Source: an uncultured Chloroflexia bacterium
GTDB lineage: Bacteria > Chloroflexota > Anaerolineae > Anaerolineales > UBA4823
Assembly: GCA_963849335.1 (NCBI GenBank)
Contig: CAWKGZ010000012.1
Location: 336,542 to 400,541 of the forward strand
DNA length: 64,000 bases
Reading direction: 5' to 3'
Shown piece by piece: positions 10,354-64,000 of this stretch (the first letter of the stretch is position 1; each line of letters begins with the position of its first letter). Under the pieces are notes generated by a model. It was not told the DNA's origin. It searched no databases and worked only from the letters and a program-made list of their open reading frames with translations. A program made the position numbers and the translations under genes.

Positions 10354-10401
10354 TATTGCAACGACTGAAGTCGTTACTACGATCACATAAGACAGGTTGT
10401 T

Positions 10402-10647: not shown

Positions 10648-10701
10648 GGCGTCAGCCGCTGCAAAGCAGCGGCGAAAACCCTATTTCACCAGACAATCAA
10701 A

Positions 10702-11907
10702 CTACCACTGCGGTTCGGGGGTTGCAATTGAGAGCAAGGTCTGTAGTACCCAGCCTTCCAGGTCGTTGGAGACCACGATCACATGTACCCAGAAGTAGCC
10801 TTCCACTTCACGGCTGTCAGGCAGGATCTGCACCAGCGTGCCGTTGGTCAGGGTGGTCAGCGGTGTAGCGTCGAAGCCCGGCTCGGCGCGCAGGAATGCG
10901 CCGCCGCTTTCATCGCCGGCGTCAATCCGCGCATAGACCGGCAGCGGCGTGGGCGAAGCAGTGAACGTCGGCGAAGGGGTCAGACTGGGGGTCAGGGTTA
11001 CCGTCGGGGTAGCGGAAGGCGGCACAGGAGTAGGCGTTTCGGTCGGGGTTGGTGGAACCGGGGTAAGGGTTGGGGTGATCGTAGGAGTTTGGGTAGGCAC
11101 TGCCAGAGGAGGACCAAAAACGCCCATCACCGCCCCAAAGGCTCCGAAGCCCAGCAGCAGCACCACACCCAGCAAAACTACCGCCCCACCCAGGGTATAG
11201 CCAAACAGGGTCATCGGGCGGAAGCCCAGAATGGCCAGGGTCAGGGCACCCAGAGCCACTGCCCAGGCCAGGTAAATGGCAAATACCACCAGGCCATCCG
11301 GCCACAGGTGGGGAATCCCGCTGGTCAGGCCGTAGCCGGCGATGGTCAGCGGCAGGTATAAGGAATAAGCCAGGGCAACAGACGGTGCGCCGGGGCTGCG
11401 CCCGGTATGCGCCATGGTAGCCGCGGTAAAGACTGCCCCAACTGCCAGAATGATGAAATGGATCCAGGAGATGCGGGCATGCAGGTAAGCCTGCTCCAGC
11501 CCCAGCGCAGGCCACCAGTAGGCAAGCATACCGCCCGCCGCCCCCACCCCAAAGACTAGCAAACCACCGACCAGGAATCCCGCCAGGCTGCGCCCAAAGA
11601 ATTTATATGAGCCAATCACCGTGCCGAAGGCCAGACCCACCACCGGGGCCATCAAGGGGGCAAAGACCGCCCCAAGCAAGAGCAGGGGAGCAGAGTCAAA
11701 CCACAGCGCAACAAAGAACAGCGCTGCCGAGAGAGCAGAGAAGATAAAGAAGTCAAACGTCGGGGAGCTGCGCCGGGCCAGATGATCAATGGTAGCGGCG
11801 CGTTCATCGGCTTCCAGCGGCGCCAGCAGGCGGCGGGCGCGGCGACGACGGGCGGGGGGCATCAGGTCTGGGTCATCAGGGAAGGATTCAGTTTTCGGCA
11901 GGCTCAT
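10702..11907 (-). CDS. DUF389-family membrane protein with PT-rich linker and C-terminal SH3b-like domain
   Basis: GAVFAPLMAPVVGLAFG resembles the DUF389 core. Multiple TM helices. A long Pro/Thr linker (10950-11100), then YARID...FLRAEPGFDATPLTTLTNGTLVQIL...GWV. Confidence 0.6.
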   Translation of the reverse strand: MSLPKTESFPDDPDLMPPARRRRARRLLAPLEADERAATIDHLARRSSPTFDFFIFSALSAALFFVALWFDSAPLLLLGAVFAPLMAPVVGLAFGTVIGSYKFFGRSLAGFLVGGLLVFGVGAAGGMLAYWWPALGLEQAYLHARISWIHFIILAVGAVFTAATMAHTGRSPGAPSVALAYSLYLPLTIAGYGLTSGIPHLWPDGLVVFAIYLAWAVALGALTLAILGFRPMTLFGYTLGGAVVLLGVVLLLGFGAFGAVMGVFGPPLAVPTQTPTITPTLTPVPPTPTETPTPVPPSATPTVTLTPSLTPSPTFTASPTPLPVYARIDAGDESGGAFLRAEPGFDATPLTTLTNGTLVQILPDSREVEGYFWVHVIVVSNDLEGWVLQTLLSIATPEPQW

Positions 11908-35597: not shown

Positions 35598-37047
35598 CTC
35601 ATCTTTTATCGCAACTTTGTTCTAGATAGGCTAAACTTGAGCAGGAAGGAGAGAAGGAAATGGAACAAAGTGCGGAAGGGTTTGCAGAGCAGGCATGGGG
35701 TAAAGTAGAATTAGGTGACCGGAGGTTGACGAGGCGAGCGGTGAAGCTGGGGGCATGCATGGCGCGTAACCCTGAAGCATCGTTGCCCAGGCAAGTAAAG
35801 GATGCCAGCGCTTTGGAAGGGGCGTACCGTTTGTTGAATAACACTTGGGTAACACTCGAGAAACTACTAGCTCCCAGCTATGCGCAGACGCGTGCAGCAG
35901 CGGAAAAGATGGAAGTGGTTTTGTGGGTGAATGACCTGACCGAGTTGGATTACACTTTTCACAAGCGTGTGGAAGGGTTGGGGCCTATCGGAGATGGCAG
36001 GGGGCGCGGGCTGCTGATGCATACGACGATCGCAGTGGGGCCTGGGGAACGCGATGTTCTTGGGTTAGGGCAAGTGAAGGTATTTTTACGCGAACCCACG
36101 CCTGTACCCAAGCCAAAATGGACCCGTTCGATGGAGGGGCGGGTGTGGGAGATGGCAGCCGAGGAGATTGGGAGTGCGCCGGAGGGGGTTACGTGGGTGG
36201 AAGTATCGGATGCGGGCAGCAACTTTTTCCCCTATTGGGCCACCTGCCGGGCGCACAACAAGCATTTTTTGATTCGGGTTGCGCAAAACCGCTGGGTGCG
36301 AGAGCAAGAAGAAGATGTCGCCCACAAACTGATCGATTATGCCCGTTGGCTGCCCGCAGTAGCAGGCAGTGAACATACCATCTCGATCCCGGCCAGGAAA
36401 AACCAGGCTGCGCGCCTGGCGGAGGTTCAGATGGCCTGGGCCGGGGTGCAGGTCGCCTCTTCTTCGCAAGCGTCACCCGCGGAACGTGCACTGCCAGCCT
36501 TTTCCGCCTGGGTTCTGCGAGTTTGGGAACCCAATCCTCCCAAGGGCGTGGAGGGCCTTGAGTGGATCTTGCTCTCCTCACTGCCAGTGACCAATCTGGC
36601 AGAAGCATATGAACGCACGCAATGGTACTCATGTCGCTGGATATGTGAGGACTTTCATCAGTGTCTCAAGACTGGCTGCCAGATCGAACGTTCGCAGCTA
36701 GATGAGCGCACGGACTTGGAGGCACTGCTTGGCTTTGCGGCGCCAATTGCCCTCCGCTTGCTGCAAATGCGTCAGGCAGCCCGAGAGCATTCCGATGTGC
36801 CGGCAAGCACCGTTGTCGATCCCCTGATGGTCGAAGTGTTGGCTCAACGGTTGCAAGTGAGTGAGAAAACGATGACCATGCATGAATTTTGGCGTTTGGT
36901 CGCTCGCCTGGGTGGTTTTTTAGGTCGCAAAGGCGATCTAGATCCTGGATGGCGCACTGTTTGGTGGGGTTGGCGCTACCTGTCGGACTTGACAGATGGC
37001 GCCCGCTTGATCTTGAACAATAGAACATAGTTGCGATAAAAGATGAG
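35598..37047 (+). mobile_element. IS4-family (IS50/Tn5-transposase-like) insertion sequence, 1450 bp, apparently intact
   Basis: Perfect 18-bp terminal inverted repeats CTCATCTTTTATCGCAAC (35598-35615) / GTTGCGATAAAAGATGAG (37030-37047). 9-bp direct target duplication CCCTCAACC (35589-35597 and 37048-37056). A single transposase ORF fills the element. Confidence 0.9.
35660..37030 (+). CDS. IS4-family DDE transposase (Tn5 Tnp-like)
   Basis: N-terminus ELGDRRLTRRAVKLG...EGAYRLLNN and C-terminal YSCRWICEDFHQCLKTGCQIE are colinear with the Tn5 transposase segments LGDPRRTARLV...EGAYRF and YTHRWRIEEFHKAWKTGAGAE. Confidence 0.9.
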   Translation: MEQSAEGFAEQAWGKVELGDRRLTRRAVKLGACMARNPEASLPRQVKDASALEGAYRLLNNTWVTLEKLLAPSYAQTRAAAEKMEVVLWVNDLTELDYTFHKRVEGLGPIGDGRGRGLLMHTTIAVGPGERDVLGLGQVKVFLREPTPVPKPKWTRSMEGRVWEMAAEEIGSAPEGVTWVEVSDAGSNFFPYWATCRAHNKHFLIRVAQNRWVREQEEDVAHKLIDYARWLPAVAGSEHTISIPARKNQAARLAEVQMAWAGVQVASSSQASPAERALPAFSAWVLRVWEPNPPKGVEGLEWILLSSLPVTNLAEAYERTQWYSCRWICEDFHQCLKTGCQIERSQLDERTDLEALLGFAAPIALRLLQMRQAAREHSDVPASTVVDPLMVEVLAQRLQVSEKTMTMHEFWRLVARLGGFLGRKGDLDPGWRTVWWGWRYLSDLTDGARLILNNRT

Positions 37048-40742: not shown

Positions 40743-42291
40743 TACTATCGCCGTTCTCGACTTCGGTTCGCAGTACGCCCAGCTGATCGCCCGGCGGGTG
40801 CGGGAGGCTCAGGTGTACTGCGAGCTGTTCCCTTGGAACGCCCCCGCTGAAACGGTGCTGGCGCGGCAGCCGCGCGGCTTCATTCTATCCGGCGGGCCGG
40901 CTTCGGTGTATGAACCGGGCGCACCTACCATTCCCGCCTATGTACTGGAAAGCGGGCTGCCTGTGCTTGGCATCTGCTACGGCATGCAAGCTATCACCCA
41001 CGCCCTGGGAGGCCAGGTAGCCGCAGCCGCGGCGCGGGAATATGGCCGCGCCGAGATCGAGACCCTCCTGCCCAACCCACTGCTGCCGCCTGGGCGCCAG
41101 CCGGTATGGATGTCCCACGGCGACCGCCTGGAGCAGCTCCCCGCCGGCTTTATCAGCCTGGCACGAAGTGACAATGCGCCCATCGCCGCGATGGGCAGCG
41201 CCGAGCGCAGGATTTACGGCGTGCAGTTCCACCCGGAGGTACGCCACACGCCGGGCGGGGTAGACCTGCTGCGGCGCTTTGTTGTCGATATCTGTGCAGC
41301 CCGCCCTGATTGGACCCCCGACTCGATCATTAGCGAGAGCATACAGCGCATCCGCAGCCAGGTAGGCACAGAACGGGTGCTGTCGGCGATCAGCGGCGGC
41401 GTGGATTCCAGCGTTGCCACTGCCCTGGTGCACCGCGCCATCGGCGACCAGCTGGTCGCAGTGTTTGTGGATAACGGCCTGCTGCGCCAGGGTGAGGCCG
41501 CGCAGGTGATGCAGAGCTTCCAGCATACATTAGGCGCCGAGCTGGTGGCAGTGGATGCAGTGGCTGATTTCATGTCCGCCCTGCGTGGGATCAGCGAGCC
41601 AGAGCAGAAACGGCGCATCATCGGCGAGCGCTTCATCCGCATCTTCGAAGCCCAGGCGCACCAGCTTGGCTTACCGCGTTTCCTGGTGCAGGGCACCATC
41701 TACCCAGACGTGGTTGAATCGAGCGCCCCAGACCGGGCGCAGGCAGCGCGCATCAAAACCCACCACAACGTGGGCGGGCTGCCGGAAGATATGCACTTCG
41801 AGCTGGTCGAGCCGCTGCGTTACCTGTTCAAAGACGAGGTGCGGGCAGTAGGCGAGGCGCTGGGGCTGCCGCACGAGCTGGTCTGGCGCCAACCCTTCCC
41901 AGGCCCTGGCCTGGCGGTGCGCTGCCTGGGTGAGATCACCCGCGAACGGCTGGAGCGCCTGCGCCAGGCGGACGCTATCTTCACCAGCGAGCTGGCGGAG
42001 GCAGGTCTGCTGCGCATGGATGCAGAAAACAATGATACCGGCACTGCCCAGGCGTTTGCCGTGCTGCTGCCGGTGCGCTCGGTGGGCGTGATGGGCGACA
42101 GCCGCACCTACCAGGAGACCGTAGCACTGCGCGCGGTGACCACCGAGGATTTTATGACCGCCAACTGGGCACGACTTCCCTATGAGCTGCTGGCTCGCGT
42201 CGCCAACCGCATCGTCAACCAGGTAGCGGGTGTCAACCGGGTGGTATACGATATCACCAGCAAACCGCCAGCCACGATCGAATGGGAATAA
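40735..42291 (+). CDS. guaA: GMP synthase (glutamine-hydrolysing)
   Basis: [25 protein letters not shown] and the ...PPATIEWE C-terminus. The ATG at 40735 overlaps the xpt stop (ATGATTGA). Confidence 0.95.
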
Positions 42292-50918: not shown

Positions 50919-51896
50919 ATGAAGCTAGATATTGCTCTTGAAATGATGGAAAATCTCGATGACGATCAACCGGTCGTGAAGTTCGAGAAGATCAAAAAAA
51001 CAGCTCGCTCTGGCGCAGAAAGGCAGCCAGCCAGCGCCGCCCAGTTTGTCCAAACTCAGGATGACTCGCGCAAATCCTTTGAGTTCTCCTACCGCGCTTC
51101 CCGGCACGAACAGGGTTGGCTGCTGAACTCGCTGGGCGGCTTTTACGAGCGGGGCTGGATTGCGGATATTTTACGCATGGTCAAGGGCGGCAAGGAAGCG
51201 TCCGTCTACCAATGCGCTTCGGGGCAGGCTGTCCAGGCGCCATCCCTGGCAGCCAAGGTTTTCCGCCCGCGCCAATTTCGCAACCTGAAGAAGGATAATC
51301 TCTACCGCCTCGACCGGGAGGTGCTGGATGAGAACGGCAACCGCATCGTCGACCTGGGCATGCTCAAGGCGCAGCGCAAGCGCAGCGTGTACGGGGAGCA
51401 GATCCGCCACCAGTCCTGGCTGGCGCACGAGTTCCAGGCACTGAAAACCCTGCACGCCGCCGGCGCGGACGTTCCACAGCCGTATGAGATGGGCGAAAAC
51501 GCTATCTTGATCGGCTTCATTGGGGACGAGCTGACCGCGGCGCCGACACTCAATACGGTGCGGCTGAAGCGGGGGGAGGCCAAACCGCTCTTTGAGCGCG
51601 TGCTGCACAATGTCGACCTGATGCTGGACAATGACATCGTCCACGCCGACCTTTCGGCCTACAACATCCTCTACTGGCAGGGGGAGATCACGCTGATCGA
51701 TTTCCCCCAGGTCATCTCACCGCGCCGGCACCGCAGCGGCTACCAGATCTTCCGCCGCGATATCACCCGCGTCTGCGAGTACTTCGCCCACCAGGGACTG
51801 CGCACCGATCCCACCCGCCTGGCGGCTGATCTGTGGCAGGCGCATGGGTATCGCACCGTTCAGGAGAGCCAGCCGGAACTGCTGGAGAGCGATTAA
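50919..51896 (+). CDS. RIO-type atypical serine protein kinase
   Basis: KGGKEASVYQC (compare RIO STGKEANVY), HADLSAYNILY (catalytic loop HGDLSEYN) and LIDFPQ (metal-binding) motifs. Confidence 0.8.
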   Translation: MKLDIALEMMENLDDDQPVVKFEKIKKTARSGAERQPASAAQFVQTQDDSRKSFEFSYRASRHEQGWLLNSLGGFYERGWIADILRMVKGGKEASVYQCASGQAVQAPSLAAKVFRPRQFRNLKKDNLYRLDREVLDENGNRIVDLGMLKAQRKRSVYGEQIRHQSWLAHEFQALKTLHAAGADVPQPYEMGENAILIGFIGDELTAAPTLNTVRLKRGEAKPLFERVLHNVDLMLDNDIVHADLSAYNILYWQGEITLIDFPQVISPRRHRSGYQIFRRDITRVCEYFAHQGLRTDPTRLAADLWQAHGYRTVQESQPELLESD

Positions 51897-53920
51897 ACGG
51901 TTTTCTTCTTGCCATGGGCGCATATACCGGTGTGGAAGACACAGGCGGTGCGCTGGCACTGCCATGCCTGGCGCAATGGCTCGATATCCGGCTGCTTTTC
52001 GGGCCATTGCGCGATGCCCGTCCACCGGCGAACCAATCCCAGCGCCACCCGGTCGCGGTCATCCAGATCGGCTTCTTTTTGTGCTTCCAGGTGTGCCTGC
52101 AGAGCCCATAAGGCGTTGTAGCAGCCCATGGTCAGCATCTTGAGCGCATTCTCCTGGCGGTAGCCCAGGCGCTCGGTGAACTGCAGCGTGCCCAGGGGCA
52201 TCTCCTGCGGGTAGATTTTGACCTCCTCGACATGCAGCGGCAAGCCATTTGCTACCTGGTCATCCGCCCAGCGGCTCATCCGTTCGAGGATACCCTCGGC
52301 ATCTCTGCCCAGGTAGCCTTTCAATCCCAGCTGGCGGGCTTTGTCGCGCAGATGGCTTTCGATCTGCCCGCGCTGTGCCTCGCTCAGGTCCATCAGGTTC
52401 TCCTGGAAGGACTCCAGGACCAATTTCAACGCCTGCCCCAGCTCTTCGCCGCGCTGCCCGAAGGTGTTGATCGTGCTGACCGTATTGGTATCGCTGGTCT
52501 GCTTGGCAATACCCTGGATCTCCAGCGTGCGCTGTACCACCTGGAAGAAATTGGGATCTTTGACTTCATCCGGCGCGACCTTCGGTTCTGCCCCGAGGAA
52601 GATGACAAACAGTTCCAGCGCCACCTCCCGCCTGGAGTGCCTGCTTTGCTCAGCCCATTCACGCACAAAGTCCACCGCGCTGTTGGAGGGGGTGTTGTCG
52701 ATAGCGCCGCCGTCCACGTAGGTGTCGCTCTCCTTGGGGAAGAAATCGCACATCTCGGCAGAATCGCGCCAGCTGGCAATGAGGCGCTCCCAACTGTCCT
52801 TCCCCTCTGCAGTCTCTCCCTTGATGGACTGATATGCCTGAGCCAGAGCCGCCTCGACCTGGGGGTCGCCCAGCCAACCGTTGAGCAAGCGATACAAGAG
52901 GGCATTTTCGGGATCGCTGGCAGGGTAAATTTCGGTGAGCGGGAAGGGGGTGAACACGCCAGGGAAGCGCCCTGAGCAGATGGCAGCGTCGATGGCCGCC
53001 GGATTTCCGGGAACCTGCAGGCGGAAGCTGCCCAGCGGGATGGCATCCGGATCATATCTCTGCAGCCGCCAGGCTTGCTTGTGCATAAAGCGCACAAAAT
53101 TCTCCGGCGGCATATAGGCGGAGATCTCCAGGCGCCCGGTGCGGTAGTTGGCGCGTGTCAGGCGCACCTCGATGCCCAGACGGGCATAATCGCGCAGTGT
53201 GCGCCTCGGGTCGACCAGGATAAATTTCTTGACCCCGGGTTCATCGGCGGTCATCGCCCCCGCCATGTGCTCCGGGCGGAGCGGGGAGACGGGCTGGGTA
53301 AAGATATCCCTGATCTTGCGATCTTCGCCGGGGGGAATGAGCGAACGATCCATGCCAAAACGCCTCAGGTAGGTGCGGATGGCCTCCTGCAGCAGCGCTG
53401 TGCGCTGCTCCTTGAAGATGCGCAGCACCTGCCCTGCTCCTCCCAGGCGCTCACCCAGTTCGCGCGCCAACGCGAGCACCGCGGCCCACACCCCGGGCTC
53501 GGGTAGCGCCCCGCGCTGGGGATCGGTCCACCACCAGCCGAGGCGGACCAGCTGCGGCAGGCTCAGGTTGAAGCGCAGCAGATCATCCTTCAGCTTGCCC
53601 AGCGGGCCCTCCGGGCTGTCGTCGATGACGCGTTTATCCGGCATCAGCAGCCAGGCATGGTGGTAGGCCTTGACCAGCGGGTCCAGCGCCTCTACCGCCT
53701 GCAGCGGGTCGGCGAGCACTTCGCCCGGCAGCCCGCGCTTCTGGTACAGGTACTCGGCAAAGAAAGCGCTGTTCATCGCCCCGATCGACGAGCCGGTGAT
53801 GACATCGAACTCCATCCCGGTAATATGAAAAGCATGGATGACGCCGGCCTCGTACAGGCCCTTGGCGCCGCCGCCGGTCATGACAAAGCCACGTTTTTTG
53901 AGTTTACCAATAACGCTCAT
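51893..53920 (-). CDS. patatin-like phospholipase with a roughly 400-aa C-terminal extension
   Basis: GGGAKG oxyanion motif, GSSIG nucleophile elbow (53771-53797), VDGGAIDN Asp motif. Start preferred at MSVIGK (53920, GGAGAAG RBS). Confidence 0.8.
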   Translation of the reverse strand: MSVIGKLKKRGFVMTGGGAKGLYEAGVIHAFHITGMEFDVITGSSIGAMNSAFFAEYLYQKRGLPGEVLADPLQAVEALDPLVKAYHHAWLLMPDKRVIDDSPEGPLGKLKDDLLRFNLSLPQLVRLGWWWTDPQRGALPEPGVWAAVLALARELGERLGGAGQVLRIFKEQRTALLQEAIRTYLRRFGMDRSLIPPGEDRKIRDIFTQPVSPLRPEHMAGAMTADEPGVKKFILVDPRRTLRDYARLGIEVRLTRANYRTGRLEISAYMPPENFVRFMHKQAWRLQRYDPDAIPLGSFRLQVPGNPAAIDAAICSGRFPGVFTPFPLTEIYPASDPENALLYRLLNGWLGDPQVEAALAQAYQSIKGETAEGKDSWERLIASWRDSAEMCDFFPKESDTYVDGGAIDNTPSNSAVDFVREWAEQSRHSRREVALELFVIFLGAEPKVAPDEVKDPNFFQVVQRTLEIQGIAKQTSDTNTVSTINTFGQRGEELGQALKLVLESFQENLMDLSEAQRGQIESHLRDKARQLGLKGYLGRDAEGILERMSRWADDQVANGLPLHVEEVKIYPQEMPLGTLQFTERLGYRQENALKMLTMGCYNALWALQAHLEAQKEADLDDRDRVALGLVRRWTGIAQWPEKQPDIEPLRQAWQCQRTACVFHTGICAHGKKKTV

Positions 53921-54011
53921 AGTTCTCTTCTCCATCTTTACGTGCTGGTTTAATTCGTCGCTACGCTCCGGCTCACACGAGGAGTGCTCACACATGAAGC
54001 CTATTCAACGC

Positions 54012-55817
54012 TTATCTCTTCATCAACCTCATGATCATTTCCCTATCTTGGAGTGCGGCTTCATAGTTGGGTTCGATCTCCAGGGCCATGTCAATATAAA
54101 CCAAAGCCTTTTGATATTCTCCGCGCAACATGGCTACGCTGCCAAGACCATTCCAGGCGCCAGCGTCACTTGGATCTTGATCACGCACAGCTTTGAACAT
54201 CCTCTCGGCTTCTGATAACGCCCGGTAAAACTCTTCGCTATGCTGGCTATCGCGCATTACCATGGCATAGTTCTTGAAGGTATAGGCACGTGCATTCTGC
54301 AGCCAATAATCCTCGGGGTAAAGCGGTAAGATTTGATCCAATATCTCCAGTGTCTTATCGATCGCTAGAGCAGCATTGATGAGGTCACGAGGATAGTATC
54401 TAAAGAATTCTAACTGTAACTGGTATAAGGCTTGTTTGCGTTCGTTGAGATTTATTTCACCGGCTTTTTTCGGTGGCAGCCGCTTAACCCCCCGAGTATT
54501 TCGATCTTCGTCGATCGCTTGCTGGTAATATTTATCTTTCTGGATACAATTTATTCGAACTCTGCGGAAGTCTTCTTTATCCCCAATATTTGCTTTAGCG
54601 GTAACATCATAAACCCCCTCGCCAGCAAATTTTGCGCTCTCGTAATACCATTTCCCCTGGTAATGGGAAATCTTACATTTACCTATTTGTTCAACGGGAA
54701 TCCCCTCAGGATGCGTCCGGACTTCAATATCTACGTTAGCTGTCTCAGCGAATGGGGTGGAGGCTAAGATGGGAAAAGAGCCTTCAAGGATTCGCCCCTG
54801 GTTTTCACCCAGAGGTATCTCTTCATTTTCAACCGGTGAATCGACTGAAAAACATGCCAGGTATGGAAATTGGATCATGACCGGCTGGTCGATTTGCTCT
54901 TTCGCCACCGTCGTTTGCGAAGGTATATCCCGGTACGTCGCGTGCAGGACCCAGGATGGTTGATCATCAACAACAAATCTAAAAAAGCCATCCGCAAGCG
55001 TGATTACCTGATCAATATCCAGTCCTATTACATCCACACTTGCATTCTCTACCGGTCGCCCATCTTCAAATACCACACTGCCAAGGATGGTGTAATTTTC
55101 TTTTGCTGCAGGCGCGGGGAAAATCTCAATCCCATACGAGCTCTTCAAGCGAGCGCTGAGCAGTGAGCGGTCCATTTCAAGCTTGTTGCGCGCATTCTCA
55201 CCGCACAGGTCACGCAAGGCACTGAATAGGATCTGTTCGCCCTTGTTGTTAGGCGGCATCCAGTTTGGCACCATGCTTTCCAGGATGTCCAACGGCTTCT
55301 GCTCTACTTCGACGACTGAAAGCAGCTTCAGGCTGTCTGCAGAGTTCTGATGCCCGGGTGACAGCAGCTGTCTGACGCTTTTTTCGATTTTTCCCAGCGC
55401 CTGGTTGCTTAAAATCTCATCCCACTCAGCTAAATCCTTCGCCCCCCGCGCTCGCTCGCAAAGCGAATTCAATTTAGAGAACCAGTTGTCCAGCTTACCC
55501 AGGCATATCACCAGCCGGTCCTCGTTCTTGAAGTCAGCATCCCAGCGCTGATTTTCGAAATCTTCCCACAGCTTTTGCCATTTCTTGTTGCCCGGTACCG
55601 GTTCAATGTTTTCTTTTACCTGGATGAAGCGGTAATGACTGTCCGCATACTGCACCACGATATCATCCACAAACGCACGCGCTTCAGATCGAACGGTAGT
55701 GATCTGCTGAGTCAGGTCACTGATCCTTGGATCCAGCATACGCCCCAGATACAAGGCTGCGACGGTATTCTGGTAATAAATTCCCGACTGGGTGGTCGAT
55801 CCGCCTCTTATGGACAT
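54012..55817 (-). CDS. three-part protein: N-terminal PD-(D/E)xK-like (Cap4/DUF4297-like) nuclease head, carboxypeptidase-regulatory-like beta-sandwich, C-terminal TPR repeats
   Basis: N-terminus SGIYYQNTVAALYLGRML ... VDDIVVQY...RFIQVKEN (D...QxK). Middle GSVVFEDGRPVENASVDVIGLD...ADGFFRF. C-terminus AGAWNGLGSVAMLRGEYQKALVYIDMALEIEPNYEAAL. Clearly more AT-rich than neighbouring genes. No P-loop seen. Confidence 0.55.
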   Translation of the reverse strand: MSIRGGSTTQSGIYYQNTVAALYLGRMLDPRISDLTQQITTVRSEARAFVDDIVVQYADSHYRFIQVKENIEPVPGNKKWQKLWEDFENQRWDADFKNEDRLVICLGKLDNWFSKLNSLCERARGAKDLAEWDEILSNQALGKIEKSVRQLLSPGHQNSADSLKLLSVVEVEQKPLDILESMVPNWMPPNNKGEQILFSALRDLCGENARNKLEMDRSLLSARLKSSYGIEIFPAPAAKENYTILGSVVFEDGRPVENASVDVIGLDIDQVITLADGFFRFVVDDQPSWVLHATYRDIPSQTTVAKEQIDQPVMIQFPYLACFSVDSPVENEEIPLGENQGRILEGSFPILASTPFAETANVDIEVRTHPEGIPVEQIGKCKISHYQGKWYYESAKFAGEGVYDVTAKANIGDKEDFRRVRINCIQKDKYYQQAIDEDRNTRGVKRLPPKKAGEINLNERKQALYQLQLEFFRYYPRDLINAALAIDKTLEILDQILPLYPEDYWLQNARAYTFKNYAMVMRDSQHSEEFYRALSEAERMFKAVRDQDPSDAGAWNGLGSVAMLRGEYQKALVYIDMALEIEPNYEAALQDREMIMRLMKR

Positions 55818-55891
55818 AGCTTACCCATTCCTTGCATCTCTAGCATTCCTACCGGGGAGGGGCGATTCTCTCTGCTCCTCCCCAGTGTTTT

Positions 55892-57223
55892 TCACTCCAC
55901 TGGATCAAAACTAATATCGATATACGGCAACGGCGCTCCGCTCACCTGTTCTTCCAGGTCGGTGCGCTGCGGTTGGGGCACGTGGGGTTTGACCGACTGC
56001 GGCTTTTTCGCTTCAACGTACGCCGTGCGGCTGTTCACCACCCGCCTCCCAATCGTCTCTATCAGCTCGGCATTGGGGATCGAAGGCCAGCGCGTCGTCC
56101 GCTCTGTCGAAGCCACGGCGTAAGCGCGAGGGGTTTCCCCCGGCTGGGGAAGGGGCAACAGCGCGTCCAGGATCTGGTTGATGGCCGGAATTTTCCCTTT
56201 TTTATCCGCCGGCGCCCACGGCGTGGCATTCTCGCTGCCGTGGTGGCCAATTTTGAGAAAGTCCAGCGGCTGGGCAAGGTCGGCATGCCGCTCCTGCCAC
56301 ATCACATTCCAGCTGCTGTTGCTCTTTCCTGGCTTCACCGCAATGTTATTTTTACCGCTCCACTCGGCGTCGCCGGGGAAGAGCAGGCGGCGCCCGTGCC
56401 ATTCGAGCAGCAGCACCACGCTCAGGTTGTTCTCCGTTTTGCCGGCCAGCTCCGCTGCCGCCAGCGCGTTGGCCTGGATGCGGCCGCGCAGCAGCTCAAA
56501 ATCCTGGGCACTGATGTTGCGCGGTGTGCGCACCACTTTCTGCTCTTCGCCGGGAAACAGCGCCTGGTACCCCTCCGCCATCCCCTGCGGTGCAGCGCCG
56601 CTCGGCGCATTCATCAGGCCGGTACCACCCAGGTAGTAAGCATCGATTTCTGCCATCGGGCCGAGAACCTTGAGCTCGACCGCCGGGTCTTCAAAGATCT
56701 TCAGCTCGCCAGGGGGCGTGTCGGCGGTCACATACACGGGCAAAATGCCTTTGTCCATGCCCTTGCACAGCAAATCGACCGCTTCTTCCTTGGACAGGCT
56801 GAGCAGCTCTTCGACCTGCGCTTTCATCTCCCCGGCAGCAAAGGCCGAGAGGCCCCTCAGGGCGCGCTGGGCAGCCGCCTTTAATGCCTGAAAGCCTTGG
56901 GCTTTGGGATTGAGCCGGTCGAATGCCGGGCTGAGCCAGATGTGGCCGATTTCGATATTTTTGAAGAACTCTTCTTCAAAGCCTTTGTGATGGTCTTCGT
57001 GGGGGTGGCTGACTACAAGCAGGTCAAGGCGTTTTTTGCCCGGTGAACCCGCCGGAAGCTCGTCCTCCAGGTGCTTGATACACTCGCCCAGCCGGTCCAG
57101 GGTATTGAATTTGTTGCCACAGTCGATCAGGATATGGACTTCCCGGTGCAGGTCGGGCACGCGCAGGTAGATGCAGTCGCCCAGGCCAACGTTGTACAGG
57201 CGCACTAATAATTGACCGTCCAT
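55892..57223 (-). CDS. metallo-beta-lactamase-fold hydrolase
   Basis: VGLGDCIYL...ILIDCG and VVSHPHEDHHKG (HxHxDH, 56987-57007), later KIGHHGS. GAGGAGG RBS. The start overlaps the upstream gene's stop by 19 nt. Confidence 0.8.
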   Translation of the reverse strand: MDGQLLVRLYNVGLGDCIYLRVPDLHREVHILIDCGNKFNTLDRLGECIKHLEDELPAGSPGKKRLDLLVVSHPHEDHHKGFEEEFFKNIEIGHIWLSPAFDRLNPKAQGFQALKAAAQRALRGLSAFAAGEMKAQVEELLSLSKEEAVDLLCKGMDKGILPVYVTADTPPGELKIFEDPAVELKVLGPMAEIDAYYLGGTGLMNAPSGAAPQGMAEGYQALFPGEEQKVVRTPRNISAQDFELLRGRIQANALAAAELAGKTENNLSVVLLLEWHGRRLLFPGDAEWSGKNNIAVKPGKSNSSWNVMWQERHADLAQPLDFLKIGHHGSENATPWAPADKKGKIPAINQILDALLPLPQPGETPRAYAVASTERTTRWPSIPNAELIETIGRRVVNSRTAYVEAKKPQSVKPHVPQPQRTDLEEQVSGAPLPYIDISFDPVE

Positions 57224-59280
57224 CCGTCCTCCTCTTTGTCATACTCGCCGGCGCGCAGGTGCGGGGTCACCTCGAAACGCACGACACCTGCCTGCTCGAA
57301 AGCCGTGACCGGCCTGGATGCTTCACTGAAACGGCTCTCCGCCTGGGTGGGGCCAACCAGCCCATTGCGGATGACCGCCGACAGGTAGCCCAACAGGGCT
57401 TGCTTGCGCTGCCGTCCAACCTCTAAATCCTTGAGCAGCCCCAACTCCAATTTGGTGGGGATATCGTTACGCTTGAGCGCCGTGGGGGCGGCTTGATAAA
57501 TTGCCAGGCGCCGGCGGATATCTTGTTCTTCAGTTTCAGCGAGGTGCTCGGTGCCGGGTTTTCGGAACCAGGAGAGCAGGTTGCCGCGCTCGTCAAAGAC
57601 CAGCGTCCCGCCGCAGTCCAGGTTGTAGGTCTTGCCATTCCAGGTCTTGAAATCCAGGTCAGCCTCTCGGTCTTTCTTTAGCTCGACAACCTCCTGCCAG
57701 GCGTATTGCAGCACGATTTCGCGCGGCAGGCGCTCAGCCGCCGCTCCGATTTTAATGGTATCGTACAAGTCCACCACGCGCACATCCTGGTGGGGAGGGA
57801 TGTGCAGCAGACGGCGATTGTCGCTCAGGAAATAGTAGGCCGCAGTGCGCGAGCGGGAGAGACGCCCAATGTCGGGATAAACGAAATCCATCCGCTCTTG
57901 GGACAGCACTTCTCTGAAGGCACAATCTTCGAGCAAATCCTTCCCCGGTTTATACTGGCAGGTGCACAGGCCGCGTGCATGAAAGACATCCAGCATCGCC
58001 GGGCGGTAGCCCTGCTCATCCACCGGATTGGTGAGGATATCATTGCGGATCACCGCCCTGGCGTAATCAATGAATTGGATGTCGCAGGGCGGACACAGGT
58101 CAATTGGCTGTAAAGCCACCCGGCGGAAGCGATCCGCCGCCCAATACAAGGCCTGGGCGGGGGTCACTTTTTTCCCTAACAGGTTCTTCTGCAGGTGCTT
58201 GGTGGCAATGGTGACCAGGATCTCCCACATGGCACCGGTCAGCACCTGCGAAACAGTGTGCGGCACCAGGCTGCCAGCAACATCTTTCATTTTTAGCTTA
58301 TTAAAAGCGGTACGCAGGTAATCTCGCCCCGCAACTTCCTGCCCAAACTCCTTAGCCAGGTCAGCCACAACATTGGCTCCTGCCAGGCCTGCGGATGTCT
58401 GGCTGACAAAACGGCGGATATCATGATTGAACAGCGCCATCAGGATGGCGGTCAGGTCGCCAATGAACTCGTGAAAAGCGGCGGTTTGCAGCGACGAGAG
58501 CTGGTTGTACATTGGCCGGATGCCATCCAGGATGGCATGCCCGGTCTCGTGGGCGATGATGTCATGCGAGAGGCAGGTGTAGCGCGGGCTCTGCTGGTCG
58601 CCGTAATAGTAAAACTGCAGCGATTTGGAATGCTGGTCGTAATACGCATTATCTCCATAGCCGGCATGCGGGACGATGATCAGGCGGTTGCCGTCAAAAC
58701 CCCAGGGCACCGGGCGTCCCAAAGCCCAGGGTTCTTCATAAAATTCCAACACGCGCTGGACAACCGCCCAGGCATTCAGCTGGTGAAAATAGGGGTTCTT
58801 GACTGTTTTATCGATGAATTGCTGATACTGCTGCTTATATTTTTCCGGGTTCTTTATCTGCTTGGGATCATCAATATCTTCAGGGACCTTGGGTGCACCC
58901 GGCAGCCAGTCTGTCTCAGAAATGGGGGTGTGAAACCAACCTTCTACTTCATCCCAAACCACCGGATCCAGCAGCGTTTGGGTATCCGCGTTAAAATCGA
59001 CCACTGCAATGCGCGCACTGGTTGGGCCGGCGCTTATATTCTTCTCTAACCGCACATAAATTTCCTGCACCCCCAAGGTGGGATTTTCCAGCGCCACCAG
59101 GGGGTCTTTGATGAACACCGGAAGCTTCATCATCAAGCCCACATCCTGGCGGGTTTCCTTAGCGATCTGGTAGTATACCGGGTACAGGTCGTCCGTCACC
59201 GATTTATTCAGCTTGATCATGGCGCCGCGCCGCCATGGCTTTTGCGGGCCATTTTTATTATTCGTTTTCTGATCAGTCAT
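57205..59280 (-). CDS. thermolysin-like (gluzincin) zinc metalloprotease, no signal peptide
   Basis: IAHETGHAILDG (HExxH, 58537-58551), followed about 20 aa later by AAFHEFIGDL (ExxxD third ligand). Start set at MTDQK (59280, GGAGGA RBS) rather than the longer track ORF. Confidence 0.7.
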   Translation of the reverse strand: MTDQKTNNKNGPQKPWRRGAMIKLNKSVTDDLYPVYYQIAKETRQDVGLMMKLPVFIKDPLVALENPTLGVQEIYVRLEKNISAGPTSARIAVVDFNADTQTLLDPVVWDEVEGWFHTPISETDWLPGAPKVPEDIDDPKQIKNPEKYKQQYQQFIDKTVKNPYFHQLNAWAVVQRVLEFYEEPWALGRPVPWGFDGNRLIIVPHAGYGDNAYYDQHSKSLQFYYYGDQQSPRYTCLSHDIIAHETGHAILDGIRPMYNQLSSLQTAAFHEFIGDLTAILMALFNHDIRRFVSQTSAGLAGANVVADLAKEFGQEVAGRDYLRTAFNKLKMKDVAGSLVPHTVSQVLTGAMWEILVTIATKHLQKNLLGKKVTPAQALYWAADRFRRVALQPIDLCPPCDIQFIDYARAVIRNDILTNPVDEQGYRPAMLDVFHARGLCTCQYKPGKDLLEDCAFREVLSQERMDFVYPDIGRLSRSRTAAYYFLSDNRRLLHIPPHQDVRVVDLYDTIKIGAAAERLPREIVLQYAWQEVVELKKDREADLDFKTWNGKTYNLDCGGTLVFDERGNLLSWFRKPGTEHLAETEEQDIRRRLAIYQAAPTALKRNDIPTKLELGLLKDLEVGRQRKQALLGYLSAVIRNGLVGPTQAESRFSEASRPVTAFEQAGVVRFEVTPHLRAGEYDKEEDGWTVNY

Positions 59281-59320
59281 CTCTGCATCCTCCAGAACTG
59301 CCCCATCTCTTGGGCATCTC

Positions 59321-61288
59321 CTACTTATAACTTGCCACCAGCTTACCCGCCTTACCACCCGTGACACGCACCCAGATCGGGTTGGTGAAGCAGCAGAAAA
59401 GCTCACCGTCCGGGCCGGCGGTTTGGGCGAACAAACGGCAGTAGCCCTGTAACCCGTTCAATTGGATCGTCACGGTATCCCCTTTCTGCAGGATCGTTTT
59501 CACCGGCTTTCGACGATGGCGGAAGCAGGTGACCAGCTCGACCTGCTCCGCCGGGCCAAATTCGGGCGTGGTGAACGCCTGGATCTTCAGATCAATATCC
59601 TGACTGCCCGAGACAGTAATCACCTCCCCCAGATGGGCGGTTTTACCCTGCTGCTCTACGGAGAAGGTGACGATCGGGCCGTCTGTGACCACGCAGGAGC
59701 CTTTGCGCATCGCCGCCAGGATCTCTGCCTCCGGCGGGATGGCATCCGTGTAGGCATCCGGCAGGTATACGACCGTGCGTACCTTGCCAAGCGCATCGTC
59801 ATCGACAATCAGCCGCCGGCGGTAATCCCAGCTCATGCCGACGCTGTAATTGAAGCTACCATGCGCATCTGAGCCTGCCAGGAAGACCGGGCGCAAGCCG
59901 GGAAGCCGGTCAGCTGCAGACCAGTTTGCCAGGCCCTGGCGCAGTGCCAGCTCCCATTCGCCATCCGCCCAGGCTTTAACTTTCTTGATTCGTTTTTGAT
60001 CCTGCTTGATCAGCTCGGCGGGGTCTGACCACTTTTTACTATCGAATGGGTTGAGCGTCAGGTGTGCGCTGCGCCGGATGCGCGCATTCCAGAACTCGAA
60101 GCCCGTCAGGCGGGGGTGGGATAAATGTTCATTCACCCATTTTCCGGGAGGCGGCGGCTGAGCTAACTGGAAGGGGTGGGCGGCGAAGAGCAGCGTCTGT
60201 GGTGGGAGCAGGGTGAGGACTTTTTCAAAGGGGTGGACCTTGCCAAACATGCGCCGGGCTTCATCCTTTGAATAGCCACCGTTCTTGGCTGCCTGGTGCA
60301 GCAATGCCTGGATGGTCTCCTGGAACACCTCGGTCATGAAACCGCCCTCATCGGGCAGGAAGGCGCCCTCGACCATCTTGTCCATTCCCCCAAAAGCCAG
60401 CATGTGGACCAGGGTGTCCCCCTTGCCAAGCAGGGTGATCTCTTCACCCAGGATGCAGCGGAACTGGTCGTTGGAGACGTTTGGGTTCGCCGTGTCGGCT
60501 TTCAAGCGCTCCCAACGGGTTTGCGGGCTGACGTCCGGGTCAACGTCATCAAGGTCGCAGGAATGATCGGTGATCACCAGCCAATCCAGGCCAAGAGCAT
60601 GTGCCGCCGTACACGACTCGGGCACCGGGTTGCCAAGCTCCTTGATGTCGTTGGTATACACCGAGTGGTAGTGGGTGTCGCCATAGAACCAGCGCCGGGG
60701 CTGGTGTGTATTTGCCGCCCGGCTTAACGGCAGGGCATGCCCGGCGAGGAATGTTTCCAGATGGATGTAGATATGGGATGGCTTATCATAGGGGTAATAG
60801 CTGCCATGAAAACCCACCCGCAGGCGCAAAGGTTTGCCGCGCACAGCCCCCTTGAATTTTGCCAGGGGGATCTTCAGGCTGTGCCACCAGGTTCTGAGTT
60901 GGAACATGCCATTGCCGTTCACCCTGGGCAGGTCGGCGGGCAGCAGCGCCAGCACGTCCTCCCAGACCACGCCAGGCATCCACTGCTGAATTTTCAGCAT
61001 ATCCAGCCGCCAGGGACCCTTGGCGGGCTTCACGATATTGGTATCTCTGACCAGGAAGAGCAGCGGAATTTTATTTTGATCTGGCTCAAGCCTCCAGGGA
61101 GCGTCAGCCCAAAATTCGGGTTGGTTTTTCCCGACCGGAGTCTCGGCACTGAGGGGCAGCGGTGCGACGGTAGGCAAGCCAGGCGTAGGAGCGCTTACCT
61201 TGGGCGGTTTTACGCCAAAGACGCCTTTGAGGAACTTGAGGGCCTGATCTTGCTGCTGCTGGTAATCTTTATCATGATTGCTCATCAT
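59321..61288 (-). CDS. PHP-domain metal-dependent phosphoesterase with large N- and C-terminal extensions
   Basis: FYGDTHYHS (60663-60682), LVITDHS and AGSDAHG motifs typical of the PHP fold. 655 aa. GGAGGTGA RBS. Confidence 0.7.
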   Translation of the reverse strand: MMSNHDKDYQQQQDQALKFLKGVFGVKPPKVSAPTPGLPTVAPLPLSAETPVGKNQPEFWADAPWRLEPDQNKIPLLFLVRDTNIVKPAKGPWRLDMLKIQQWMPGVVWEDVLALLPADLPRVNGNGMFQLRTWWHSLKIPLAKFKGAVRGKPLRLRVGFHGSYYPYDKPSHIYIHLETFLAGHALPLSRAANTHQPRRWFYGDTHYHSVYTNDIKELGNPVPESCTAAHALGLDWLVITDHSCDLDDVDPDVSPQTRWERLKADTANPNVSNDQFRCILGEEITLLGKGDTLVHMLAFGGMDKMVEGAFLPDEGGFMTEVFQETIQALLHQAAKNGGYSKDEARRMFGKVHPFEKVLTLLPPQTLLFAAHPFQLAQPPPPGKWVNEHLSHPRLTGFEFWNARIRRSAHLTLNPFDSKKWSDPAELIKQDQKRIKKVKAWADGEWELALRQGLANWSAADRLPGLRPVFLAGSDAHGSFNYSVGMSWDYRRRLIVDDDALGKVRTVVYLPDAYTDAIPPEAEILAAMRKGSCVVTDGPIVTFSVEQQGKTAHLGEVITVSGSQDIDLKIQAFTTPEFGPAEQVELVTCFRHRRKPVKTILQKGDTVTIQLNGLQGYCRLFAQTAGPDGELFCCFTNPIWVRVTGGKAGKLVASYK

Positions 61289-61394
61289 TCACCTCCATAC
61301 TTCTAATGCCCGCATTTCACCTCATTTGGTATTAACCAAGAGATGCACAGGCAAGGGTTAGGATTTGGATAAGTTGAAAATGGCCGGGATAGCC

Positions 61395-62129
61395 TCATTC
61401 AAGCTTACCGGTGAACCGCTTCGCTGTATTCAGGATGAAATTCCACAGAGGCCAGGGGCTGGTGCCGATGATGAACGCAAACGCCACCATGATTGTCGGC
61501 ACGGACAGGTCGATGGTGATCGCATTGCTGTTCGCCAGGGTGAATTCCAGCTTTACCAGCGAGAGCAGCAGGACGGTGATCAACACCAGAATCGGTGTGG
61601 CGACAATGTGGGCAAGATGCATCAGCACGCCCTCCCGGTAAAAACGATGGCTGCGCAAGTACCAGCCGGTGGTGAAGATTTTGCTCACCAGGATACCTGC
61701 CAGCCCCCAAAGTAATATTTCAAGGTAGCGCAGGGGGTCTTCTGACCAGATACTGAAACCATCGCCTGAATCGACGAGAAATAGATGCGCTACCATGTAC
61801 AGGATGATCACCGCCCAAAAGAGACCAAACACGATCCAAAAAAATACGCGACCCGCTTTGTCATCGACGGTTTCTGCGATGCGTTCCAAATAAATCTTGA
61901 TATCCGTCCGGTCTTGATCCATGTCAAGCTGCTGCGGTTCGCTGGCGAAACTTCCCGTTTCCAGGGCAACAAAGGTCCACATGCCTGGCGTTGGAATGTC
62001 CAGGGTAAATTCGCCACCATCGTCGGTCGTTGCGTATTTGGTTTGACCGGCTTTGTAGGCTTTTATGGTGGCATAAGAAACGCGCTCTTTTCCCCCTGAT
62101 CGATAAATCGTACCTGAAGCTGTAGACAT
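61395..62129 (-). CDS. membrane protein: N-terminal carboxypeptidase-regulatory-like beta-sandwich plus about 4 TM helices
   Basis: GTIYRSGG..ATIKAY...TTDDGGEFTLDIPTPGMWTF, then hydrophobic helices (VFFWIVFGLFWAVIILYMVAHLF, and others). AAGGAGG RBS. First gene of the co-directional cluster. Confidence 0.5.
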   Translation of the reverse strand: MSTASGTIYRSGGKERVSYATIKAYKAGQTKYATTDDGGEFTLDIPTPGMWTFVALETGSFASEPQQLDMDQDRTDIKIYLERIAETVDDKAGRVFFWIVFGLFWAVIILYMVAHLFLVDSGDGFSIWSEDPLRYLEILLWGLAGILVSKIFTTGWYLRSHRFYREGVLMHLAHIVATPILVLITVLLLSLVKLEFTLANSNAITIDLSVPTIMVAFAFIIGTSPWPLWNFILNTAKRFTGKLE

Positions 62130-62452
62130 AATTCCTCCTTGCGATGATTGGGTTGGGGATTAGACGAATAAATAAAATAGAAGCCGTCATGTCAAGTGAC
62201 GACTTCTTGAAGGTAGCAGAACAATGGCAACGATGGCAACAAGACCCTTCTGTCACCTAACCGGGCAGTGCTTAAATTCATTTCACAATAGTATTATATA
62301 TCCCTATTGTCATAAGTCAACACTTTGAGCGAGCAATGTGATCTCCTAGCGCCTAGACAAATCCAGAGAATGATGAACACCATGTGTTCAAAAAAGGCGG
62401 CTATATATTGGGGCTATCTACGCCGCAACGAAGAACTAAAAATCGGCTACCC

Positions 62453-62749
62453 TGTGGATAACTCGCGAAAAACTGTGGATAAAGTGCTTTAACTGGGGAG
62501 AAACCGGGAATTCTATCTGATTTTGTTTTTCTGCTTACCCCTATATGTGGGGGGTGCTTTTGGGCACCCCCCATGGAGCACAACTGCCTGTGGGATGGGG
62601 AAAACAGGCTCTTTTTCTCCAATGTTATCCCGGTTCGCCCTGTGGAGAGAAAACACGGTTTTACCACCCAGGGATGGATGGCTGACCAGGTCGCCCCCCA
62701 TATCCCCGGCAGCCCAATCCCGCACAGGTGTTTTCTCCACTTATCCACA
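62453..62749. promoter_or_regulatory. DnaA-box cluster (three perfect TTATCCACA boxes) in a 664-bp AT-rich non-coding region
   Basis: TGTGGATAA at 62453-62461 and at 62474-62482 (same orientation, 21 bp apart). TTATCCACA at 62741-62749 (opposite orientation). Degenerate boxes at 62641-62649 and 62733-62741. AT-rich tracts at 62288-62320 and 62764-62799. Confidence 0.55.
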
Positions 62750-62793
62750 ACCCCTACTACGACGACTATATATATACTGATAACAATAAAAGG

Positions 62794-64000
62794 TTAATCT
62801 TCTCCCTTCAAATTCAGCGGCAAGTAGATCACCCAGGACTCAGGCAGCAGGGGCAGCTCAAAATCCTGAGTAACCAGCGTATCAGCCACAACGGTAACTT
62901 CGCTCACCGTGACTGGTGGATAACCGTCGGCGCTGACCGTGGCGGTGTAAACACCGGCGGGAAGTAAGGAAGTGTAATAACCGTTGGAGTCGGTCAGGGT
63001 GTTGAAAGTGTACCCCAGCGGGTTGGTGAAGACCAGGGTGGCGCCCGGAATGGGATCAGCACTGCTGGCGGCGCTCACCGTGCCGTCCAGCGAGCCGGTA
63101 GGGAGCCGGCAGTTGCTCATGTGGGCGAAGGTGGCAAGGGATGCTTTGACGAAGTCGGTGTAGTAGGGCATGTTGAGATATTGCAGCTGGTCATTGGTGG
63201 TGTGATAGTAGTCGTTAAAATCAGAGTCGTCTTCGATTGCCAGGATGGAGACGTAATTGAAGTCCCAAAAGGAAGCATGGTCGCTGGCGCCCATACCGGT
63301 ATCAAAAATATCTGCATCCAGGTTTATCGCATAGGCGGTAATGACATCGCTAAACAGTTGCGCCAGTTCCAGCGTGGCAGGCATCTCGTCCCAGGCGTGC
63401 AGGTCGATCCCCGGGCGGTTATCAGAGTTCCATGCGATCATATCCAGATTGATGTACCCCAGGATGGTCTCCTTCTGCAGCCTGGACCGCTCGGCATATT
63501 CATAACTGCCGAGCAGGCCCTGTTCCTCACCGGTCCAGAAGGCAAAGCGCAGCGTGCAGCCCGAGTAGTATTGGGAGAATATCTTCGCCGCCAACATGGT
63601 CGCCACCGAGCCGCTGGCATTGTCATCCGCGCCAGGGGCGATCGAGCCGGTGGGCATGTCGTCCAGGTGACCGCCGATAATGTAAATATTGCGCGGGGTG
63701 ACCAACCCGGGCATCTTGCCGATCACATTGGGAGGCGTGCCGGTTTCCCAGGTGTGGTATTCCACCGTCAGCCCCAGGTCGCTCAGGTACTCGCCGACGT
63801 ATTGGGTGGCTTTCTGGATTGGTTCACCGCTGTAGGTGTAGCGGGTATTGATGTCATAAGGTTCCCCTCCAACAGTGACCAATGTCTCGCCGCTCAGGCC
63901 GCTGGTCAGGTCATACACCTCGCTCTCCGTGACCTGGTCGATGATTTGTTGGACGAGCGGGTCAGGGACGACCACGGCGGGGAAGATGTCGGCTTCTGCA
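62794..64000 (-). CDS. M28-family aminopeptidase with C-terminal carboxypeptidase-regulatory-like domain (5' end runs off the window)
   Basis: GGHLDD, PGADDNASGSVATML and TGEEQGLLGS zinc-ligand motifs. The frame stays open to base 64000. The C-terminus reads GATLVFTNPLGYTFNTLTDSNGYY...GVYTATVSADGY. Confidence 0.8.
   Translation of the reverse strand, partial: AEADIFPAVVVPDPLVQQIIDQVTESEVYDLTSGLSGETLVTVGGEPYDINTRYTYSGEPIQKATQYVGEYLSDLGLTVEYHTWETGTPPNVIGKMPGLVTPRNIYIIGGHLDDMPTGSIAPGADDNASGSVATMLAAKIFSQYYSGCTLRFAFWTGEEQGLLGSYEYAERSRLQKETILGYINLDMIAWNSDNRPGIDLHAWDEMPATLELAQLFSDVITAYAINLDADIFDTGMGASDHASFWDFNYVSILAIEDDSDFNDYYHTTNDQLQYLNMPYYTDFVKASLATFAHMSNCRLPTGSLDGTVSAASSADPIPGATLVFTNPLGYTFNTLTDSNGYYTSLLPAGVYTATVSADGYPPVTVSEVTVVADTLVTQDFELPLLPESWVIYLPLNLKGED

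Follow-up and report, generated by a model that had tools for sequence, protein, structure and literature searches.

A putative DnaA-dependent chromosomal replication origin, unlinked to dnaA, beside an M28 peptidase gene in Anaerolineales-type Chloroflexota

The Bacillus subtilis-type basal unwinding system of the chromosomal replication origin (oriC) is reportedly that of Richardson et al. 2016, 2019. It comprises a DnaA box (no more than 2 mismatches; in many cases one of a tandem pair) placed 0-16 bp from an array of at least three DnaA-trios of the form 3'-NAN-5', among which GAT is the commonest next to the box, and a gap region, formerly called the GC-rich region, that averages 4 bp (Pelliciari 2021, PMC8287927). 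The subject of the present analysis is a module at positions 62395-62800 of a 64,000-nucleotide stretch of DNA from an uncultured Chloroflexia bacterium (contig CAWKGZ010000012.1; the whole stretch is called the window below). Very probably this module serves an Anaerolineales-type Chloroflexota bacterium as its DnaA-dependent chromosomal oriC, away from dnaA.

One criterion for an origin is a cluster of at least three DnaA boxes with a mean spacing below 100 bp (Mackiewicz 2004, quoted in PMC7561715). A literature search for a described origin in Anaerolineae or Chloroflexi found nothing specific. For Anaerolinea thermophila UNI-1, a DoriC/Ori-Finder prediction (ORI94030346) exists at position ~420-460, and its match to the unwinding module is weak, consisting of the box AAAAGGGGT with 2 mismatches, a 16-nt spacer and the trios TAG CAG CAT TAG CAT (Pelliciari 2021 Table S2, PMC8287927).

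Arrangement and conservation of the module

The non-coding interval in which most of the module lies (62130-62793, 664 bp) has a G+C content of 46%, as against ~59% across the window, and is flanked by two genes of the - strand. On its left is the 5' end of a gene starting at 62129 and encoding 244 aa (the 62129 gene), and on its right the 3' end of an M28 peptidase gene, which has its stop codon at 62794-62796 and continues past the window end (complete protein, 554 aa). In this lineage the module lies between the 3' end of M28 and an inserted cluster of ~10 kb. An Rfam scan of the region at gathering and permissive thresholds gave no relevant match.

Relatives were taken from metagenome-assembled genomes (MAGs) labelled Chloroflexia, Anaerolineales or Anaerolineae, and from metagenome loci; where single loci have to be told apart, they carry L numbers. 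At least 24 related loci from metagenomes or MAGs have a collinear module of ~400 bp behind the stop codon of an M28 orthologue (50-89% identical). In 19 metagenome loci, two perfect TTATCCACA boxes at a distance of exactly 21 bp lie downstream of the M28 orthologue. L086-L089 and L093, retrieved by exact protein look-up, have this pair as well; among them are the NCBI MAGs GCA_974947085.1 and GCA_049287485.1 ('Anaerolineales bacterium'). The module is absent beside the M28 paralogues of Promineifilaceae and of another Chloroflexota MAG (L092, L094).

Read in the direction of M28 (the - strand of the window), the module starts with the M28 stop codon, followed by an AT-rich tract of ~30-45 bp, five trios, exactly 4 nt, and two overlapping boxes of the form TGTGGA(T/A)A(T/A)GTGGA(G/A)AA. 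A box of opposite orientation lies ~95 bp further on, then comes a further box of the first orientation, and the module ends with three boxes of the second orientation, (T/A)TTTCCACA - TTATCCACA - TTATCCACA, with starts 20 and 21 bp apart. This architecture is collinear in an alignment of 20 origins (mean column identity 58%), in which the invariant columns cluster in the trio array and the boxes. The alignment with relatives that lack the inserted cluster (L086, L007 and more distant loci) stops just past the box pair and the third site of a second motif described below, and to the left of ~62395 only the cluster-bearing relatives L006 and L088 align. When all frames were compared, no open reading frame (ORF) within the module was conserved across relatives. 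Public gene calls of 78 aa (L086 6421-6657) and 55 aa (L088 3029-3196) inside the origin are open frames of the non-coding DNA rather than genes; no frame is kept across relatives, and L007 has 1-nt indels there.

The upstream synteny, (saccharopine dehydrogenase)-MutS2-(MFS_3 or GFO)-M28, is retained in the relatives. Downstream, most of them have an ArsR/DUF5937 regulator and/or an MFS transporter, then OsmC, YchF and PepF, and in L086, with M28 83% identical, RIO1 adjoins the module and is followed by the same ArsR/MFS/OsmC/YchF/PepF set. Because the downstream neighbour varies while the upstream MutS2-(GFO)-M28 stays, the module is autonomous and not the promoter of a particular gene. Three ORFs of the relatives had been suspected of being replication genes: the 424-aa and 356-aa ORFs beyond the boxes (dnaA/dnaN) proved to be the MFS transporter and an ArsR-family regulator, and the 816-aa upstream ORF (gyrA) proved to be MutS2.

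In 1.0 Mb comprising the window and the loci, both strands included, the pattern (T[A/C]G)x5 occurs 21 times, always at the module position and always followed by exactly 4 nt and then TGTGGA; the spacer is 4 nt in every locus. In the M28 direction the commonest array is 5'-TAG TAG TCG TAG TAG-3', with the variants (TAG)x5 and TAGTAGTATTAGTAG, and the window has TAGTCGTCGTAGTAG. Read as trios, the homologous arrays are GATx5 in L021, L031 and L032, contain at least four consecutive GAT in L036, L039 and L040, and are GAT GAT GCT GAT GAT in most others. The window combines a perfect box, a 4-nt spacer and a 2-mismatch box just upstream, all within the box-to-trio distance rule (at most 2 mismatches, 0-16 bp). 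The AT-rich tract between the M28 stop codon and the trios has the same position in 20/20 aligned relatives. In duplex stability, the segment 62767-62796 ties with 62272-62301 as the second least stable 30-mer of the 64 kb, each with a dG of -28.8 against a window mean of -44.1 (standard deviation 3.75), i.e., ~4 standard deviations off. A trio array on the opposite side, past the 62453 box, was also considered and rejected: only T-rich triplets of the NAN type are found there, and in relatives this side has neither a conserved array nor an AT-rich tract.

Three perfect DnaA boxes lie in the interval (boxes a, f and g in Table 1; f and g read TGTGGATAA on the + strand), whereas 0.006 are expected by chance in 664 bp of the region's own composition and 0.25 in the 64-kb window. 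They are accompanied by four 2-mismatch boxes (62494, 62596, 62641 and 62733). The seven boxes lie within ~300 bp, in agreement with the cluster definition of at least three boxes at a mean spacing below 100 bp, and the interval is the highest-scoring box cluster of the window. Boxes with at most 1 mismatch number 20 in the window against 8.4 +/- 3.0 in shuffled sequences, and of its four perfect boxes three fall in 62130-62793. The fourth, at 41466-41474 (-), is solitary and lies within guaA, the GMP synthase gene. An earlier note on this DNA had listed the three perfect boxes, the 2-mismatch boxes at 62641 and 62733 and a GC hairpin at about 62549-62572, and had held the perfect boxes not to be due to chance, with an expectation of about 0.005. 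The box scan and the folding analysis bear out each of these statements, and the scan adds the boxes at 62494 and 62596.

Individual box positions are conserved to different degrees. Boxes f and g are invariant, and box a is kept as TGTGGA(T/A)A(T/A) in locus orientation, with TGTTGAAAT in L034. At box b most relatives have a sequence of the type GTGGA(G/A)AA, and this box belongs to the predicted unwinding module. The position aligned with box c is TTATCCACA, TTATCCCCA or TTATACACA in most relatives. Box e reads TTCTCCCCA in the window, L006, L086 and L088, CTTTCCCCA in L007, and TTTTCCACA or TTATCCACA in more distant relatives. The 'ATCCCACA' element resembles a DnaA box with one extra base, and an ATCCCAC(A) element ('TTATCCCACA' or 'CCATCCCACA') is present in 11/20 non-redundant origins.

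In addition to the boxes, the origins share a palindrome-like motif, CCCC(A)ATATATGGGG, at three position-conserved sites per origin, with the same offsets in L006-L093. Its density is 4.1/kb within origins and 0.02/kb in ~1 Mb of flanks, a ~200-fold enrichment. Site B of L041 is the perfect palindrome CCCCATATATGGGG, and site C, at offset +64 as in the window, is CCCATATATGGGGG or CCAATATATGGGGG in L086 and L007. We know of no origin-binding factor for this motif. The gene for the ArsR/DUF5937 regulator is the usual neighbour of the origin. The G+C hairpin is specific to one lineage, being found in the window, L006, L086 and L088 only and absent in more distant origins.

Table 1. Positions of the putative origin module, its elements and the adjacent transcription signals in the window
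Feature	Position	Strand	Sequence and remarks
Putative origin module, conserved	62395..62800		~406 bp, from third ATATAT palindrome-like site to AT-rich tract over M28 stop codon
AT-rich tract, predicted DNA unwinding element	62766..62799		79% A+T; overlaps M28 stop codon 62794-62796
DnaA-trio array	62754..62768	+	+ strand reads 5'-CTA CTA CGA CGA CTA-3'; - strand is 3'-GAT GAT GCT GCT GAT-5'
Spacer, 4-nt, G+C-rich	62750..62753	+	ACCC; between box a and first trio
DnaA box a	62741..62749	+	TTATCCACA, perfect; trio-proximal, oriented toward trios and AT-rich tract
DnaA box b	62733..62741	+	TTCTCCACT, 2 mismatches; tandem with box a, 1-nt overlap, same orientation
Second-motif site A	62694..62707	-	GGGGATATGGGGGG; ATATATGGG-type motif, offset -221 or ~-190 from box pair
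DnaA box c, middle box	62641..62649	-	CTCTCCACA, 2 mismatches
Box-like element	62589..62605	-	GTTTTCCCCATCCCACA; holds 2-mismatch box TTTTCCCCA (62596-62604) and conserved 'ATCCCACA'
G+C hairpin	62549..62572		GGGGGGTGC-ttttgg-GCACCCCCC; dG -14.8 kcal/mol, z = -3.2
Second-motif site B	62538..62554	-	CCCCCCACATATAGGGG; overlaps left arm of G+C hairpin; offset ~-64 from box pair
DnaA box e	62494..62502	-	TTCTCCCCA, 2 mismatches; first of three phased same-orientation boxes, start 20 bp from box f
DnaA box f	62474..62482	-	TTATCCACA, perfect; second phased box; invariant in 20/20 aligned origins
DnaA box g	62453..62461	-	TTATCCACA, perfect; third phased box, start 21 bp from box f; invariant in 20/20 aligned origins
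Second-motif site C	62398..62414	-	GCCCCAATATATAGCCG; left edge of conserved module
Sigma-70-like promoter of inserted cluster, outside origin	62293..62320	-	TTGACT-16-TATAAT, 11/12 matches
5'-leader hairpin of 62129 gene, terminator-like, outside origin	62179..62207	-	11 pairs, then ATTTTATTTA; kept in L006 and L088 only

The origin reading and its alternatives

In the proposed mechanism, DnaA would occupy the three phased boxes (62453, 62474 and 62494), which are two helical turns apart, the middle boxes and the tandem pair 62733/62741. The tandem boxes would direct DnaA to the 4-nt spacer next to them and to the trio array (five units, 62754-62768). Starting at the boxes, a filament of ATP-DnaA would grow over the trios of one strand and stretch that strand. 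Aided by DnaA on the middle and phased boxes, the filament would open 62766-62799, the predicted helicase-loading site. The module would presumably be used as the sole origin. Its surroundings also count for an oriC. The neighbours are housekeeping genes, namely mutS2, ychF (~17 kb from the module), pepF, guaA, maf, rsgA and a glmU-like gene. Of the genes to the left of the module, over 62 kb, ~65-70% are on the - strand and run with a fork that moves leftward from it.

Several observations weigh against this reading or give it no support. Raw GC skew is near zero, with 1.2 kb of the window lying to the right of the site. When the skew at third codon positions (GC3 skew) is split into replication and transcription terms, the replication term is ~-0.002 on the 62-kb arm of the window, and the relatives show -0.02 to one side of the site and +0.02 to the other, which has the right sign but is tiny and comes from non-independent homologous genes. 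Skew of either kind is too weak for a decision. There is no flip of gene orientation at the site in the DNA covered, and transcription of M28, GFO and MutS2 (and of MetG and RpoD in L093) proceeds toward the site, head-on to an outgoing fork. Signature motifs of dnaA (RDHTTV, GxxGxGKTHL) are absent from all frames of the window and of 85 loci (L001-L085); dnaA is absent from the 62 kb to one side of the module and, in relatives, from the ~10 kb to each side of it. According to a Pfam survey, the window holds ordinary housekeeping and transport genes and no dnaN, gyrB, recF or parAB. Trios 3 and 4 of the window are GCT, so that two consecutive NAN units follow the box, one fewer than the strict rule of at least three; the homologous arrays of several relatives do have three NAN trios. 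A second and possibly stronger box cluster may exist beside dnaA.

The weak skew, the gene orientation and the absent dnaA thus leave room for a DnaA-binding locus that is not an origin, or for a second cluster beside dnaA. In Escherichia coli, datA and DARS are box clusters with IHF or Fis sites, and to our knowledge they do not carry a trio array with an adjacent AT-rich tract. A titration or recycling locus of the datA/DARS kind, or one half of a split origin with its unwinding half elsewhere, e.g., beside dnaA, would fit the distance from dnaA and dnaN and a site at which a switch of skew and gene orientation is not demonstrable, and DoriC, as used by Pelliciari et al., puts the origin of Anaerolinea thermophila at ~420-460. 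Such a regulatory locus is nevertheless considered unlikely. Conservation is highest here in the trio array, the spacer of exactly 4 nt and the AT-rich tract, a datA/DARS-like function leaves the conserved array and tract unexplained, and the Anaerolinea prediction is itself a low-scoring match to the unwinding module, with its 2-mismatch box and 16-nt spacer. Insertions right beside the module (the 10-kb cluster here, a tyrosine-recombinase-like gene in L039) and a Tn5-type transposase gene in the window would suit an origin that belongs to a mobile element, e.g., an integrated plasmid, and not to the chromosome. Hardly any weight is given to that explanation, since housekeeping synteny is kept on both sides (mutS2-M28 and RIO1-arsR-MFS-osmC-ychF-pepF) even where M28 is only 50-60% identical, and no rep, par or mob genes are seen in the window.

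The earlier note had also suggested a promoter under DnaA control for the cluster with its start at 62129. Such a promoter would have the boxes on the correct side of the 62129 gene, upstream of it, and a strong sigma-70-like promoter does lie at 62320..62293. The sigma-70-like promoter is, however, at least 130 bp outside the conserved module, in DNA common only to cluster-bearing genomes, and the cluster is an insertion relative to L086. Relatives retrieved via the 62129 gene keep its downstream partners, have no M28 upstream and have no perfect box within +/-10 kb, whereas those retrieved via M28 keep the boxes together with quite different downstream genes, including relatives that are free of the cluster. 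The loci without boxes at first resembled evidence against conservation; because they were found via the 62129 gene, they indicate instead that the boxes are not part of it, and a DnaA-controlled promoter is rejected as very improbable. Another proposal of the note, an oriC located away from dnaA, is supported by the comparative evidence, its third was the datA/DARS-like site taken up above, and its statement that the window has neither dnaA nor dnaN holds. The note had treated 62130-62793 as one element with two candidate AT-rich unwinding tracts. The boxes in it are real but the conserved element extends only over ~62395-62800, and both tracts exist but only that at 62764-62799 is the likely unwinding element, the other, at 62288-62320, being the promoter of the cluster.

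The reading of the module as oriC can be extended to a joint claim, which is put forward tentatively and as a whole is rather doubtful. In this claim, the module would be the true, dnaA-unlinked origin of a whole Anaerolineales clade, and the dnaA-side origins of databases, e.g., that of Anaerolinea thermophila in DoriC, would be misplaced. The CCCC(A)ATATATGGGG motif would be the site of an origin-specific factor or a structure that controls initiation, and GCT at trio 3 would be a lineage variant of the single-strand code of DnaA.

For Anaerolineales, a large and mostly uncultured group of Chloroflexota in which GC skew is too weak for the usual predictors, the module provides a comparatively supported origin at the sequence level. 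Growth-rate (peak-to-trough) estimates from metagenomes could be anchored to it and MAG assemblies oriented by it, and it points to a second origin motif, of the CCCCATATATGGGG type, as yet unexplained. The neighbouring hydrolase cluster is best seen as an island inserted beside the origin, not as a DnaA regulon.

The inserted cluster and other features of the window

The genes for RIO1, ArsR, MFS, OsmC, GlgC, YchF, PepF and DUF4332 at 42.4-51.9 kb of the window are 90-97% identical to those of L086. Because the RIO1 set directly follows the module in L086, the genes at 51893-62129 represent an insertion of ~10.2 kb between the module and RIO1, common to the window, L006, L088 and L089. The inserted cluster is on the - strand and has six genes, including those for a patatin-like phospholipase (700 aa), a protein with a Cap4/HamA/LmuA-like N-terminus and TPR (601 aa) and an MBL-fold protein (443 aa), and three others for a 733-aa protein, a PHP/CehA-like protein (655 aa) and a CarboxypepD_reg-like protein (244 aa). 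Its matches to components of anti-phage defence are all weak and sub-threshold, and the cluster may be a defence island beside oriC.

The segment 62130-62395 is taken to be the promoter and leader of the inserted cluster and not part of the origin. The promoter is kept only in the cluster-bearing L006 and L088. The terminator-like hairpin lies ~80 nt downstream of the promoter and ahead of the ribosome-binding site of the 62129 gene. Promoter and hairpin together (62179-62320) could form a leader or attenuator, or a small RNA, of the inserted cluster.

Another insertion beside the origin is seen in L039, where the DNA ~2.2 kb beyond the origin (9600-11039) is replaced by a tyrosine-recombinase-like gene that holds two perfect boxes; this segment has no match in the sister contig L040. 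Elsewhere in the window, the Tn5-type transposase gene (Tnp_DNA_bind and Dimer_Tnp_Tn5 domains) is at 35660-37030 (+), amid housekeeping genes. In the FeoB ORF at 8554-10353 (+), the match to the FeoB_N model begins only at model position 63, and there is no long ORF in the 1.8 kb upstream (6716-8553); the start of this gene may be disrupted or miscalled.

Comparison with described origins

In the order and orientation of its parts the module agrees with the Bacillus-type basal unwinding system, sharing with it tandem boxes in the same orientation, a 4-nt G+C-rich gap, trios with 3'-GAT-5' next to the box and then an AT-rich tract. Its layout closely resembles the Deinococcus entry AATAGGTGT CAAAGGTGT CGGG AATGATAAT... 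(Pelliciari 2021, PMC8287927), and is similar to that of the C. difficile trio sequence 5'-CACCTACTACTATTACTACTATGA-3'. It differs from the Bacillus-type system in that its two boxes have 1 nt in common (their starts are separated by 8 bp), and in that the trio-proximal box of the window is the better one, whereas usually the upstream box is closer to the consensus (Pelliciari 2021, PMC8287927). The third trio is GCT in most lineages, and in the window the fourth is as well, so that the central adenine is missing. The module is beside neither dnaA nor dnaN and has the additional palindrome-like motif.

The oriC of E. coli is likewise not adjacent to dnaA, and it has a high-affinity box (R1) facing the unwinding element and further boxes over a few hundred bp for oligomerisation. 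Unlike it, the module has no 13-mer repeats or GATC clusters, and no IHF or Fis sites were recognised in it. Its far group is made up of three boxes at 20/21-bp phasing and not of closely packed low-affinity sites, and its flank is an M28 peptidase gene rather than mnmG/mioC. The datA, DARS1 and DARS2 loci of E. coli are also DnaA-box clusters in non-coding DNA away from dnaA, but they lack a trio array and an unwinding tract and are defined only in enterobacteria. The Anaerolinea thermophila prediction comes from the nearest taxon with a database origin and is also based on DnaA boxes, and the module shows no resemblance to it. In sum, the module is familiar in kind, and its location is as yet undescribed. 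It would extend the box-plus-trio unwinding module to Anaerolineales in a conserved variant, in which the tandem boxes overlap, the gap is 4 nt and the middle trio is GCT.

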